Assembly: GCA_963782055.1 (NCBI GenBank)
Contig: CAWAIF010000003.1
Coordinates: 5,472,001 to 5,536,000, forward strand
From: an uncultured delta proteobacterium
Lineage (GTDB): Bacteria > Myxococcota_A > Polyangia > Polyangiales > Polyangiaceae
Reading direction: 5' to 3'
DNA length: 64,000 nucleotides
Shown: in pieces, positions 6,290 to 16,009 of the stretch
How positions within the stretch are numbered: the stretch's first letter is position 1
Layout: the number at the start of each line of letters is the position of its first letter
Made by a program: the position numbers and the translations under genes
The notes under the pieces: model-generated
The model's input: the letters and a program-made list of their open reading frames with translations, nothing else
Told to the model about the DNA's origin: nothing
Databases searched by the model: none

Positions 6290-6991
6290 CTACGGCAGGT
6301 AGCAGACGGTGGCGACGAGCTGCGTGGCGTCCAGGCTCCCGCCGGCGCCGCCCCAGCCGACGACGAAATCCACGGTGTCCCCCACGTCCACCGGCTCCGT
6401 GAGGCCGAAGGCCGCGTCGCCGCCGGAGGCGTCGCCCAGGTTGATCTCACCGTCGAAGAGCGAGCCGGCGCCGTGGAGGACGTGCACGTCCACGGTCGTC
6501 GGCGGCTTGATGGAGAGGCCGACGAAGCGCCCGCCGAGCGCGATGGTCCGCTTGACGGGTGAGGTCCACCGTACGACGGCGGACTCCCCTTCGAGCCCCG
6601 GCATCAGGACGACCGCGCCCGCCGGCACGTCGGCCGTCTGGAACCAGGTCACGGTCTGCGAGGTCGGGTTGAAGCCCACCGCCGGCTGCGCCCCGCCCGT
6701 CAGGGAGGTCACCCACAGGTCGGCCGGACCGAAGGCCTGCTCGTTCGGGAGCGGGCTGAAGATCCCGGGCTCGAACTCGTAGCCGTAGCTCCACGGGCCC
6801 GTCGGGTTGTCGGTGAGGGAGAAGTCGACGGCGACGTCGTCGCAGTGCGGCGTCGGGCCGGCCTCGGGCACGCCGGCGTCGAAGAGGAAGGAGGCGTCGG
6901 GCACGGCGGGCTGCGGCCGCGGAGGCAGGTCGATGCGGGTGCACGCCGCGACCGCGGGCGACACCAGGACGAGGAAGACGAGCCGGCGCAC
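6290..6991 (-). CDS. Hypothetical lipoprotein
   Basis: Lipobox 'AVAAC', DAG linker, GC3-biased codons; GTG start inferred. Confidence 0.7.
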   Translation of the reverse strand: MRRLVFLVLVSPAVAACTRIDLPPRPQPAVPDASFLFDAGVPEAGPTPHCDDVAVDFSLTDNPTGPWSYGYEFEPGIFSPLPNEQAFGPADLWVTSLTGGAQPAVGFNPTSQTVTWFQTADVPAGAVVLMPGLEGESAVVRWTSPVKRTIALGGRFVGLSIKPPTTVDVHVLHGAGSLFDGEINLGDASGGDAAFGLTEPVDVGDTVDFVVGWGGAGGSLDATQLVATVCYLP

Positions 6992-7016
6992 GATGGGCTC
7001 ATCATAGCGCTCTTTG

Positions 7017-7100
7017 CGGAAGGAAGAGGACTCGCACCCCACGCGGAGACCGCGCGCGCTGTTTTCGAGACAGGCCCGACGCTTGGTCGGTTTTCCTTCC
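7017..7100 (-). tRNA. Non-canonical 8/4-fold tRNA-Ser(CGA)
   Basis: GGAAGGAA/TTCCTTCC 8-bp acceptor; CCGAC/GTCGG D-stem with 5-nt loop; anticodon loop CT-CGA-AA (one C.C mismatch atop the stem); long variable arm CGCGG-TCT-CCGCG; 4-bp T-stem GGGG/CCTC with loop TGCGAGT; G73. Confidence 0.8.
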
Positions 7101-7102
7101 AG

Positions 7103-7128
7103 TCTCGCGCCGGATGCCCGGCGCGAGA
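7103..7128. other. Perfect 11-bp hairpin between the HNH stop and tRNA-Ser
   Basis: TCTCGCGCCGG-ATGC-CCGGCGCGAGA; no U-tract. Confidence 0.6.
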
Positions 7129-7139
7129 TCCCGCCTTGT

Positions 7140-7643
7140 TCACGCGCAGAACACCTGCCACGGGGCGGGGACGGTGGCGGGGTCGACCTGCAGCGCCGTC
7201 GTCGCCGGCAGCCACGAGGGCTTCACCGGCTTGGAGAGCAGGCGCATGTGCGCCTCCTCCGGCGTGCGGCCGCCCTTCCTGTCGTTGCAGGCGCGGCACG
7301 CGGTCACGATGTTCGTCCAGTCCGTCGGGCCTCCGCGGGCGCGGGGCACGACGTGGTCGTAGGTGAGCTCGCGCATCGCCCGGCGGGCGCCGCAGTACTG
7401 GCAGCGGAAGGCGTCGCGGGTGAAGACGTTCAGCCGCGAGAAGCGGACCGTCCGCCGCACCGGCACGTGGCCGCGCGTCAGCCGCACCACCGCGGGCGCC
7501 CGCACCGCGAGCGCCTGCGAGCGGATGATCTCGTCGTACTCGGCGACGACCTCGACCTTGCCGAGGAAGCTGAGCACGATCGCGCGCTGCCAGGGGATGA
7601 CCCTGTGCGGCGCCATCGCCGGCGTGAGCATGAGTGTCCGCAT
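7140..7643 (-). CDS. HNH endonuclease (McrA-like stand-alone family)
   Basis: 'WQRAI', 'FSRLNVFTRDAFRCQYCG', 'LTYDHVVPRARGG', 'NIVTACRACNDRKG'. Confidence 0.95.
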   Translation of the reverse strand: MRTLMLTPAMAPHRVIPWQRAIVLSFLGKVEVVAEYDEIIRSQALAVRAPAVVRLTRGHVPVRRTVRFSRLNVFTRDAFRCQYCGARRAMRELTYDHVVPRARGGPTDWTNIVTACRACNDRKGGRTPEEAHMRLLSKPVKPSWLPATTALQVDPATVPAPWQVFCA

Positions 7644-7734
7644 GACCGTTACCTTCGTCTCTTCCTCTTCACGAGGCTGCTGACGCGCGGCGCGGCTCGA
7701 GCCGGACGATGCCACCCGTCCGGGGTGGCGTCGG

Positions 7735-7806
7735 CGCCTCCGCCAAGAGTCGAACTTGGCCACCGAGCTTCGGAGGCTCGAGCCTGGATTCCGCCAGGAC
7801 GGAGGC
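7735..7806 (-). tRNA. Atypical tRNA-Arg(CCG)
   Basis: GCCTCCG/CGGAGGC acceptor; 1-nt linker; 5-bp D-stem CCTGG/CCAGG with loop CGGAAT; 6-bp anticodon stem, loop CT-CCG-AA; 3-nt variable loop; CCAAG-TTCGACT-CTTGG; G73. Confidence 0.8.
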
Positions 7807-7808
7807 CT

Positions 7809-7873
7809 GCGTCCACGGGTCCACGCGCCCTTCGGGTCGTGGGCCGGCCTTCGGCCGGACCTCGTGTGGACGC
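7809..7873 (-). ncRNA. Putative multibranch structured RNA or leader directly 5' of the atypical tRNA-Arg
   Basis: Outer stem GCGTCCAC/GTGGACGC enclosing hairpins CCGGCC-GAA-GGCCGG and CCACG..CCC-GAA-GGG..CGTGG. Confidence 0.45.
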
Positions 7874-7877
7874 CATC

Positions 7878-7896
7878 GGCGACGCCGTCCTGACGC
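7878..7896 (-). promoter_or_regulatory. Candidate operator/promoter motif GCGTCAGGACGGCGTCGCC
   Basis: 17/19 identical to 15900..15918, which also precedes an irregular tRNA. Confidence 0.6.
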
Positions 7897-7947
7897 CGGT
7901 GTTGCCTGCGAGAGACGCGAGGCGTGGGCTGCCGGTAGAGTGATCCC

Positions 7948-9117
7948 ATGCGGTTGGTGCGAAGGGGCCTCGTCGCGACCGGCGTTCTGGTCGCCGCTGG
8001 CGCGGCGGCGTGCTCGGTGCTCACGCCGCTGGACGACCTCACGCAGGGCTACGACGCTGGCGCCGACTCGCCCGCGGCGCCGCGCTGCGAGGGCGGCCTC
8101 GCCGCGTGCAACGGCGCGTGCGTCGACCTGTCCTCTGACGGCCGCAACTGCGGGCGCTGCGGCCACGACTGCGTCGGTGGAGGGTGCTCGGCGTCGGCGT
8201 GCCTGCCCCTGACAATCGCCACCGGCCAGCACTCGCCCTTCGGCATCGCGGTGGACGCGACGCGCGTGTACTGGGCGAACAACGACTACAAGGCCTCCTT
8301 CGCGAGCTGTCCCATCACGGGGTGCGCGGACGGCGGAGTCACCACGCTCCTCGACAACCAGGATCTCCCGGCCGACGTCTTCGTATCTGGCGGCAAGCTC
8401 TACATGACCGACTACGGTGTCAGCGGCGACGCGGGCGGACCGGGGCTGGTGCTCTCCTGCGATCCCACCAACTGCGCGGCCACGCTGGCCACGATCACCT
8501 CCACGACGCCCGACAACCCCGTGGCCGTCGTGGCGGACAAGAGCTCGGTGTTCTGGACCAACGCCAAGGACGGGACCATCGGCACGTGCAGCGCGATCGG
8601 GTGCGTCTCGCCCGGCACCTTCGCGAAGGACAAGGGCGGTGGGCCGTGGTACGGCCTCGCGATCGCGGGCAACGGCGTGTACTGGACGAGCGACGTGCCC
8701 GACGCCGGCGCGGTGAACCGCTGCGACGTCGGCGGGTGCGCCGCGCCGACGCTCGTCTCGAGCAGCCCCGGCCGCCCGTTCGACCTCGCCGTCTTCGGGG
8801 ACTCGGTCTACTGGACCACCGGCGCCGGCGGCCAGGTCCTTCGCTGTCCGCTCGCCGGCTGCAGCACGCCCCAGATCTTCGCCGACAACCAGGCGGCGCC
8901 GGCGGGCATCGCCGCCGACGCCTCCGGCGTCTACTGGTTGAACCAGGCTTCCGGCACCGTGCTGCGCTGCGACCTGCAGGGCTGCGGCGCGAACGGGCCG
9001 GCGGTGCTCGCGGGCGGTCAGGGCGCGCCATGGGAGATCGTGCTCGACGCCACCAGCCTCTACTGGGGAGACTCCGCGAGCGCGGACGGGCGCGTCATGC
9101 GCCTCGCGAAGCCGTGA
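7948..9117 (+). CDS. Secreted lipoprotein with Cys-rich linker and YW-repeat beta-propeller
   Basis: Lipobox 'AAAC', 'NCGRCGHDC', repeated 'VYW/VFW/LYW' blades. Confidence 0.8.
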   Translation: MRLVRRGLVATGVLVAAGAAACSVLTPLDDLTQGYDAGADSPAAPRCEGGLAACNGACVDLSSDGRNCGRCGHDCVGGGCSASACLPLTIATGQHSPFGIAVDATRVYWANNDYKASFASCPITGCADGGVTTLLDNQDLPADVFVSGGKLYMTDYGVSGDAGGPGLVLSCDPTNCAATLATITSTTPDNPVAVVADKSSVFWTNAKDGTIGTCSAIGCVSPGTFAKDKGGGPWYGLAIAGNGVYWTSDVPDAGAVNRCDVGGCAAPTLVSSSPGRPFDLAVFGDSVYWTTGAGGQVLRCPLAGCSTPQIFADNQAAPAGIAADASGVYWLNQASGTVLRCDLQGCGANGPAVLAGGQGAPWEIVLDATSLYWGDSASADGRVMRLAKP

Positions 9118-15761: not shown

Positions 15762-15899
15762 GCGCCTCGCGCGGTGGACGGTCAGCGCCACGCGGCAGGA
15801 TCGCGCGGCGGGACCTCTCCGGCGGCGTGTCGAGGGACGCAAGAAGGAGCGCCGCGAGGCGAAGGACCATGAGGTGCGGACGCGACGCCGTCGCGGAGC

Positions 15900-15918
15900 G
15901 CGTCAGGACGCCGTGGCC
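15900..15918 (+). promoter_or_regulatory. Candidate operator/promoter motif GCGTCAGGACGCCGTGGCC
   Basis: 17/19 identical to the motif at 7878..7896 (minus); ends 19 nt before tRNA-Cys. Confidence 0.6.
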
Positions 15919-15937: not shown

Positions 15938-16009
15938 GAGCCGGTTCTCTGACGAGGAGCGCGGTCTGCAACACCGTGCGCGAGGGTCTGATTCCCTCCC
16001 GGCTCTCCA
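15938..16009 (+). tRNA. Atypical tRNA-Cys(GCA) with encoded CCA
   Basis: GAGCCGG/CCGGCTC acceptor, U73, CCA; anticodon arm GCGGT-CTGCAAC-ACCGT; T-arm GAGGG-TCTGATT-CCCTC; short D-arm lacking GG. Confidence 0.82.

Follow-up and report, generated by a model that had tools for sequence, protein, structure and literature searches.

A predicted IshB-type nuclease gene between two non-canonical tRNA genes: a probable remnant of a contracted tRNA array in a Polyangiaceae chromosome

Arrays of transfer RNA (tRNA) genes that carry an HNH nuclease gene are the described systems closest to the locus reported here. In the trn operon of Anabaena PCC 7120, carried on pCC7120delta, the HNH gene is described as being co-induced with the array by chloramphenicol, and a homing role has been proposed for it; the same account gives 23 of 26 array tRNAs as aminoacylated in vivo and three of the 26 genes as pseudogenes (PMC8421152). 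For the mycobacterial tRNA array units, HNH is given as the most widespread coding sequence (PMC5966550), and these units have been called a putative anti-defence system (PMC12803027). Two further descriptions matter for the parts of such loci: that of the (8/4) tRNA-Ser, the Ser-anticodon subgroup of the (8/4) allo-tRNAs, which is also found in tRNA gene clusters (other allo-tRNAs are reported to function in translation in E. coli; Mukai et al. 2017, PMC5389517), and that of IshB, a protein of ∼180 amino acids (aa) described as a PLMP domain joined to an HNH domain (PMC11610941, PMC10734217). Here we analyse a small locus on the minus strand of a 64,000-nucleotide stretch of DNA (the window) from contig CAWAIF010000003.1 of an uncultured Polyangiaceae bacterium, in which an HNH nuclease gene lies between a tRNA-Arg and a tRNA-Ser gene, at positions 7896–7017. 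The source genome (G000) comprises 7.58 Mb in 3 contigs with 71.7% GC, and the window corresponds to C3:5472001-5536000; other G-numbers refer to genomes of relatives, and L-numbers to extracted loci.

We favour, at a probability of roughly 60%, the reading that a horizontally spread L-array (tRNA array unit) has contracted here to a remnant of long residence, made up of an IshB-type nuclease with one array-type tRNA on each side. Every part, read in this way, is of a known kind: an L-array remnant, an (8/4) tRNA-Ser, a compact tRNA resembling tRNA-Pyl, and an IshB-type nuclease. The features, in their order along the minus strand, are as follows (R1 and R3 are covariance models introduced below):

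7878..7896, minus strand: 19-nt motif GCGTCAGGACGGCGTCGCC, 5′ of the module
7819..7863, minus strand: copy of a double-hairpin repeat with a 46-bp period, similar to repetitive extragenic palindromes (REP-like); core of a GC-rich fold, the ‘multibranch RNA’ 7873-7809
7733..7806, minus strand: compact tRNA-Arg(CCG), called by ARAGORN; 83.4 bits with R3
7707..7733, minus strand: GC-rich hairpin without a U-tract, directly 3′ of tRNA-Arg; –17.6 kcal/mol, z –2.8
7140..7643, minus strand: IshB-like nuclease gene, 167 aa, from Pfam, NCBIfam, PDB profiles and structure models
7103..7128, minus strand: perfect hairpin with an 11-bp stem and 4-nt loop, without a U-tract, between the HNH stop codon and tRNA-Ser; –24.2 kcal/mol, z –5.1
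7017..7100, minus strand: (8/4) tRNA-Ser(CGA), 84-nt cloverleaf; 69.6 bits with R1

All features listed in a preliminary description of this DNA were recovered, at coordinates that are exact or off by 1–2 nt. The module has 72% GC, matching the genome, and the HNH gene has 98% GC at third codon positions (GC3).

The two tRNAs depart from the canonical layout in different ways. The tRNA-Arg has a 7-bp acceptor stem, a single U8 linker, a 5-bp D stem with a 6-nt D-loop in which GGA is kept, 1 nt before a 6-bp anticodon stem, the anticodon loop CUCCGAA, a 3-nt variable loop, a 5-bp T stem with the T-loop UUCGACU, and a discriminator G (7735). The single nucleotide between acceptor and D stems, the small D-loop, the 6-bp anticodon stem and the 3-nt variable loop are shared with tRNA-Pyl and mammalian mitochondrial tRNA-Ser(UCN) as these are described in PMC7609411; like the mitochondrial tRNA-Ser(UCN) of the same source, the tRNA-Arg retains G18, G19 and the T-loop sequence. 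Unlike either of them, the tRNA-Arg and its relatives carry Arg anticodons (CCG here; ACG, UCG and GCG in relatives) and are bacterial and array-borne; unlike tRNA-Pyl, they imply no dedicated synthetase. The tRNA-Ser has an 8-bp acceptor stem, an AA linker, a 5-bp D stem with a 5-nt D-loop, a 4-bp anticodon stem with the loop CUCGAAA (anticodon CGA at 7067-7065), a variable region of 17 nt with the hairpin of a long variable arm, a 4-bp T stem with the T-loop UGCGAGU, and a discriminator G (7017). Its 8-bp acceptor and 4-bp T stem (a 12-bp branch), long-stem short-loop D arm, long variable arm, G73 and Ser anticodon match the (8/4) tRNA-Ser described in PMC5389517. It differs from the published examples in lying in a myxobacterial chromosome beside a nuclease, stripped of its cluster, and in having a D-loop without GG and G55 in the T-loop. 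Identity elements are present in both RNAs (GGA/A20, C35 and G36 for Arg; G73 and the long variable arm for Ser), and both anticodon loops differ from those of the housekeeping copies, with A37 rather than G37 in the tRNA-Arg and C32 rather than U32 in the tRNA-Ser.

Standard tools treat this pair poorly. ARAGORN calls the tRNA-Arg and misses the tRNA-Ser, and the Rfam models tRNA (RF00005) and tRNA-Sec report neither RNA at E ≤ 10 in a 2-kb search, nor at the gathering score. Searching the whole genome with RF00005 at E ≤ 10 yields 52 matches, of which 48 exceed the cut-off; the window's pair is not among them, while the housekeeping tRNA-Arg(CCG) (C2:407736-407809) and tRNA-Ser(CGA) (C2:470993-471079) are detected at 71.6 and 55.7 bits, respectively. 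ARAGORN on its own is not trustworthy in this genome, where it makes 68 tRNA calls against the 48 Rfam matches over the cut-off. Because the standard tools disagree or fail, we built covariance models from the homologues of other genomes, leaving out the window copies: R1 from 11 array (8/4) tRNA-Ser and R3 from 8 array tRNA-Arg. R1 gives the window tRNA-Ser 69.6 bits (E = 2e-11), against 19.8 bits for the runner-up in the 64 kb and 47.6 bits for the housekeeping tRNA-Ser(CGA). R3 scores the window tRNA-Arg at 83.4 bits (E = 1e-17), with 23 of 23 pairs standard; next in the window comes a canonical tRNA-Arg(CCT) at 41.2 bits. Thus, the earlier proposal that both RNAs are non-canonical tRNAs which standard models overlook holds, with ARAGORN finding just one of them and Rfam none.

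The families to which these RNAs belong fold consistently. The eight array tRNA-Arg share one layout (7-bp acceptor stem, U8, 5-bp D stem, 1 nt, 6-bp anticodon stem, 3-nt variable loop, 5-bp T stem); 96.7% of the cells of their alignment are paired and 19 of 23 pairs covary, whereas slid controls pair at 39–46%. The consensus fold of 12 Ser sequences, the 11 from arrays and the window copy, has acceptor, D and T stems of 8, 6 and 4 bp, respectively, and both sides change in 13 of its 22 pairs. In the R1 alignment 16 of 16 modelled pairs of the window tRNA-Ser are standard, and all pairs of its acceptor (8/8) and T stem (4/4) are standard as well. The nearest relatives of the two RNAs are 73–83% identical to them, with compensatory changes in the helices. 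The T-loop UGCGAGU of the tRNA-Ser looks like damage at first; it is nevertheless a recurrent array variant, since the extracted loci contain 43 T-loops of the form UGCGAnU between paired flanks, mostly inside arrays, compared with 426 of the form UUCGAnU. We conclude that each of the two RNAs belongs to a non-canonical, array-specific tRNA family and is structurally intact. By their scores with R1 and R3, models made from other genomes, both are paralogues distinct from the housekeeping set and shared across taxa by transfer.

We found homologues of the nuclease gene in full tRNA arrays. When the 1-kb module was compared with 40 relatives by BLASTN, 29 had a match to the HNH gene (with G000 included, 30 of 41 genomes), and in G019, G037 and G034 the match extended to the Ser element 3′ of HNH, at 76–81% identity. 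Records with the nearest HNH homologues carry the taxon labels Polyangiales, Polyangiaceae and other Myxococcota. Dense arrays of ARAGORN tRNAs surround the gene in G019 (10 in 3.5 kb), G011, G034 and G028 (13 each), G026 (6) and G037 (7), as well as in metagenome-assembled genomes of a Kofleriaceae (10 tRNAs) and a Gemmatimonadaceae (19). A genome of the same genus, G001, has 25 co-oriented tRNAs that end 25 nt before an HNH gene 54% identical to that of the window (L101, G001:C12:10900-14030); this array has 59% GC against 65–67% in its flanks and, going by its sequence, looks like a recent acquisition. The same genome also carries a ‘solo’ HNH orthologue on another contig.

The array systems described first belong to the same family. 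A plasmid of M. intracellulare has an HNH homologue (41% identity) among 28 tRNAs, and pCC7120delta of Anabaena encodes a 178-aa homologue 5′ of 24 ARAGORN tRNAs, 39% identical over residues 16–142 (E = 1e-26), a span that covers both domains. The preliminary description had stated that HNH genes of this type occur beside large tRNA arrays, some of them induced by translational stress; the first statement is confirmed in Polyangiales genomes, the Mycobacterium plasmid and pCC7120delta, and the second applies to the Anabaena gene as reported in PMC8421152. The window locus resembles the Anabaena and mycobacterial arrays in that the nuclease is co-oriented with and placed among tRNAs, which are distinct from the housekeeping set. 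It differs in having two tRNAs instead of 6–28 or more, and in a composition that is fully host-like, with no plasmid or phage context.

How often tRNAs accompany the gene varies with the sample. In 80 homologue loci drawn from one genome per GTDB species, arrays were present at 3 loci and 1–2 tRNAs at 7, while at the other 70 the nearest 2 kb were free of tRNAs. For the 80 closest homologues from metagenomes, at least 3 tRNAs lie within 1.5 kb in 41, 1–2 in 14 and none in 25, and a co-oriented tRNA ends no more than 200 nt 5′ of the open reading frame (ORF) in 43. Array association depends on the closeness of the HNH homologues. An (8/4) tRNA-Ser follows HNH on the 3′ side in 7 of 9 arrays and in 14 of 16 metagenome loci with an R1 match, and the tRNA on the 5′ side varies in type (Leu, Ile, Met, Arg, Pro, Cys). 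An (8/4) tRNA-Ser directly 3′ of the nuclease is thus a conserved array neighbour.

In a maximum-likelihood tree of 53 HNH homologues, 10 of 10 array-embedded HNHs group in one clade (support 96/88), and the window gene falls into that clade; it is homologous to the array HNHs of Polyangiales, Mycobacterium and Anabaena and belongs to the array-linked family. Arrays are absent from the other clade (26 rows), which contains a second G000 copy from C2, 44% identical to the window gene, together with same-genus and same-family orthologues. This second copy (C2:137458-137931) is likewise a predicted PLMP + HNH gene; it falls in the clade without array links and is conserved in same-genus genomes. 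Among 21 non-array HNH loci, the combination of an (8/4) tRNA-Ser with a high-scoring compact tRNA-Arg occurs once, in the window itself. Six same-genus solo loci have at most one Met-like tRNA, two of them keeping a compact Met(CAT)-like tRNA 13 nt 5′ of the gene. The closest metagenome homologue (68% identity) has a compact tRNA-Arg(ACG) (87.1 bits) and one more tRNA on its 5′ side and none on its 3′ side. The arrangement had been proposed to be a minimal module in its own right; as a recurrent unit it is not supported, given the single occurrence and the at most one Met-like tRNA of same-genus relatives, and a stage in the shrinkage of an array is the better reading of the locus. Full arrays, intermediates and bare nuclease genes all exist, so that they form a continuum in which the window represents one late stage.

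The nuclease itself can be assigned to a described architecture by modelling. The 167-aa ORF matches Pfam HNH_5 (2.2e-16) and HNH (4.4e-15), and the set of four cysteines with D-H…N…N is invariant across 19 homologues, the window protein keeping every invariant column. The protein divides into an N-terminal part with a PLMP fold (residues 1–57) and an IscB/Cas9-type HNH domain (∼66–143) with a Cys4 zinc site. NCBIfam gives domain-level matches to Cas9d (1.4e-13) and IscB (6.9e-12), both below the family cut-offs, and profile matches in the PDB are to 4h9d and IscB/Cas9d, with TbaIscB at 3.9e-13. A model of the whole protein (predicted local distance difference test, pLDDT, 80) has two domains only and resembles both the nicking HNH of Geobacter (4h9d) and HNH domains of the IscB/Cas9 type. 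A separate model of the N-terminal 62 residues reached a pLDDT of 92.7; in a fold search against 48,161 chains, the top five matches were all N-termini (residues 1–48) of IscB/IsrB proteins, with Z-scores of 7.2, 7.1, 6.1, 5.8 and 5.4 and alignments of 46–48 residues at a root-mean-square deviation of 1.1–3.0 Å. The sixth match had a Z-score of 3.0 and was followed by IF3-N at 2.8. A profile of the N-domain found no IscB/IsrB match among PDB sequences at E ≤ 10, so that the link to PLMP is one of fold. Hirano et al. (PMC9581776) describe the PLMP domain as a four-stranded sheet with a helix, similar to IF3-N and in contact with hairpins of the omega-RNA.

On these models the nuclease is predicted to consist of a PLMP and an IscB/Cas9-type HNH domain, the published architecture of IshB. 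It resembles IshB, as far as that protein's published description allows comparison, in its length of 167 aa, its PLMP-fold N-domain, its IscB/Cas9-type HNH and the lack of a RuvC domain. No IS200/IS605 context was seen among the three neighbouring genes scanned with Pfam, a scan that included no search aimed at transposases, and Rfam finds no known RNA, an omega-RNA included, at the locus. The putative homing HNH genes of tRNA arrays, the Anabaena and mycobacterial ones included, would by the same modelling be tied to a PLMP + HNH architecture of the IshB type; in the literature searched, we found no paper that links IshB or PLMP to tRNA arrays. A known defence-system protein was also considered for the nuclease and set aside, PADLOC giving only weak HNH-domain matches (best PtuB, 8e-08).

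Several observations weigh against the reading of the locus as a contracted array with retained tRNAs. Neither RNA is recognized by the Rfam tRNA models, neither gene encodes CCA, and a scan for sigma-70-like promoters gave 0 sites in the locus. The D-loop of the tRNA-Ser (CAAGC) lacks the GG kept by most array (8/4) tRNA-Ser. The window copies are not needed for decoding, since the genome has canonical genes for tRNA-Arg(CCG) and tRNA-Ser(CGA) at other sites. In the tree the window gene is sister to the six same-genus solo genes (62–66% identical), with weak support (92/38); since these solo loci have lost both tRNAs, the tRNAs are dispensable in close relatives. The three proteins flanking the window locus have no tblastn match (E ≤ 1e-3) in same-genus HNH loci, which leaves positional orthology unsupported. 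With flanking genes unshared, the order of events, array first and loss later, is drawn from tree topology rather than proven. A full array comprises about 10–43 dense, co-oriented tRNAs, and in the window two flank the HNH gene, with a third 8 kb off on the other strand.

Much of this would also be expected if only the nuclease gene were under selection and both tRNA-like genes were decaying, non-functional leftovers. The loss of both tRNAs in close relatives, the presence of canonical isoacceptors, the failure of Rfam and the D- and T-loop deviations of the tRNA-Ser all fit such decay, and the three pseudogenes given for the 26 Anabaena array genes in PMC8421152 provide a precedent. We nevertheless consider decay unlikely. 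All modelled pairs are standard in both RNAs (23/23 in Arg and 16/16 in Ser), even though their relatives are only 73–83% identical and show compensatory changes; the T-loop with G55 is common in arrays and no lesion; and a locus old enough for its HNH gene to reach a GC3 of 98% should have had some of its helices broken by neutral decay. The host-like composition (GC3 98%, 72% GC) argues for long residence, and perfect helices after long residence argue for selection on both RNAs.

If the locus is a remnant whose tRNAs were retained, its three genes would be transcribed like an array polycistron, the tRNAs would be cut out by RNase P and RNase Z, and CCA would be added enzymatically. The host arginyl- and seryl-tRNA synthetases would charge the two tRNAs, which might then add decoding capacity for CGG and UCG. 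In 1,888 long ORFs with high GC3, CGG and TCG account for 17.7 and 16.6 per 1000 codons, and apart from the window copies the genome has one C34 tRNA gene for each of them; as both codons are common, a benefit from dosage is plausible. The nuclease would most likely be a DNA nickase or an enzyme of the homing type, which in the past assisted the spread or persistence of the array.

By analogy with proposals for L-arrays and phage tRNAs, the tRNAs might instead serve as back-ups whose odd bodies and anticodon loops escape tRNA-cleaving toxins or the anticodon nucleases of phages and bacteria, or which are induced when translation is blocked. The anticodon loops are indeed unlike those of the housekeeping copies (Arg A37, Ser C32), PMC8421152 reports induction of the Anabaena array and its HNH gene by translation inhibitors, and PMC12803027 has mycobacterial arrays as a putative anti-defence system. 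However, two tRNAs would serve two codons only, and no tRNA-nuclease gene turned up in the neighbourhood, where no search aimed at one was made. Taken together, a role of this kind seems to us quite improbable for the present locus.

A long shot, and very doubtful, is that the PLMP + HNH protein binds the adjacent tRNA or tRNA-like transcript as a scaffold, guide, regulator or antitoxin, on the analogy of the omega-RNA of IscB/IsrB: the PLMP fold of the N-domain, the contacts that PMC9581776 describes between the IsrB PLMP and both the terminal hairpins of omega-RNA and the Shine-Dalgarno region just 5′ of the ORF, and the co-oriented tRNA no more than 200 nt 5′ of the ORF in 43 of the 80 closest metagenome loci would fit it, yet 70 of 80 GTDB-sample members have no tRNA within 2 kb and still keep the PLMP domain, the type of the 5′ tRNA varies, and no guide-like complementarity turned up, no search having been aimed at it. 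There is only the slimmest chance that the array-linked nuclease is in general an RNA-dependent enzyme with the tRNA or tRNA-like transcript just 5′ of its own ORF as partner, the two irregular tRNAs having outlasted the array because the nuclease needs them; if so, the nuclease would be related to the IscB/IsrB omega systems, with a tRNA as its scaffold or as the molecule that it senses.

The segment upstream of the tRNA-Arg contains elements with a wider distribution. The 65-nt ‘multibranch RNA’ (7873-7809) folds at –35.7 kcal/mol (z –2.8), and its core (7863-7819) is one of 49 copies in G000 of a family of GC-rich double hairpins with a 46-bp period, mostly in tandem runs of 4–13. On C3 they are found at the following sites, in addition to single copies:

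C3:1343656-1344247, repeat family
C3:3482843-3483247, repeat family
C3:3324371-3324690, repeat family
C3:2943807-2943984, repeat family
C3:1351712-1351886, repeat family

One single copy lies just 5′ of the housekeeping tRNA-Ser(GCT) (C3:3063-3151). With 48 other copies in the genome, the core is not locus-specific, and the fold, which had been counted as part of the module, has to be removed from it as a dispersed repeat. A local alignment of two upstream regions placed a second site of the 19-nt motif (7896-7878) at 15899-15917, with 17 of 19 bases shared. Genome-wide the motif has 11 matches at no more than 2 mismatches, itself included, and it was not found near the arrays of relatives among 188 loci. 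The second site lies 19 nt 5′ of a third irregular array-type tRNA in the window, a tRNA-Cys(GCA) at 15938-16008 on the plus strand. This tRNA has a hairpin D arm, a 7-bp anticodon stem, the T-loop UCUGAUU, U73 and an encoded CCA; it is missed by Rfam, scores 32.7 bits with R3 with all pairs standard, and has the layout of an array tRNA-Cys in G034.

Scans of the surroundings gave few further elements. No terminator-like site was called on the minus strand of the module; the scan found two sites only, both on the plus strand within the tRNA-Ser D arm. Rfam at E ≤ 10 around the locus gave chance-level miRNA and small-RNA matches only. Between tRNA-Arg and the HNH start we saw no leader mini-ORF or attenuator, and the only in-frame upstream extension of the HNH ORF passes through tRNA-Arg. 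In Pfam searches of three neighbouring genes, one encodes a VIT-family protein, one a protein with no Pfam match and a third a protein that Vgb_lyase and Stig1 match weakly, below threshold; the protein with no Pfam match is a putative lipoprotein by reading of its N-terminus. In the public read runs checked for window positions 6900-8000, no RNA run is listed as containing the region, and a single soil-metagenome DNA run has 0.18 of the sampled words.

Some peculiarities were noticed in the arrays of other genomes. Between the array HNH and the (8/4) tRNA-Ser of G019 (L008, G019:C162, 2134-2227) lies a 9-codon ORF, MIASMKLGL, with a strong ribosome-binding site, followed by a 26-nt stretch identical to G000 C3:6630306. 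That position is ∼2.2 kb from a tRNA-Ala/tRNA-Ile pair (C3:6632513-6632721), and we take the stretch, presumably, to be 23S rRNA. Of 189 loci, this one alone has the leader ORF with the 26-mer; the window lacks it. The Rfam family YrlA (Y RNA-like; gathering score 69) matches inside two arrays, at L008 583-709 (57.5 bits) and L014 1122-1211 (28.6 bits). The array tRNA-Leu of L008, L011, L014, L023 and L024 are 73–77 nt long and class-I-like, without a long variable arm. On plasmid pREB6 of Acaryochloris marina (L108, 73440-75830), an HNH homologue with no ARAGORN tRNA within 4 kb adjoins a methionyl-tRNA ligase gene of the plasmid.

On the reading favoured here, the locus would be an L-array almost fully dissolved in the host chromosome, with two intact non-canonical tRNAs still beside the nuclease. 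It adds bacterial tRNAs with the (8/4) fold and with a tRNA-Pyl-like fold, both missed by standard annotation. The retention of these two array tRNAs suggests that individual array tRNAs can be domesticated.

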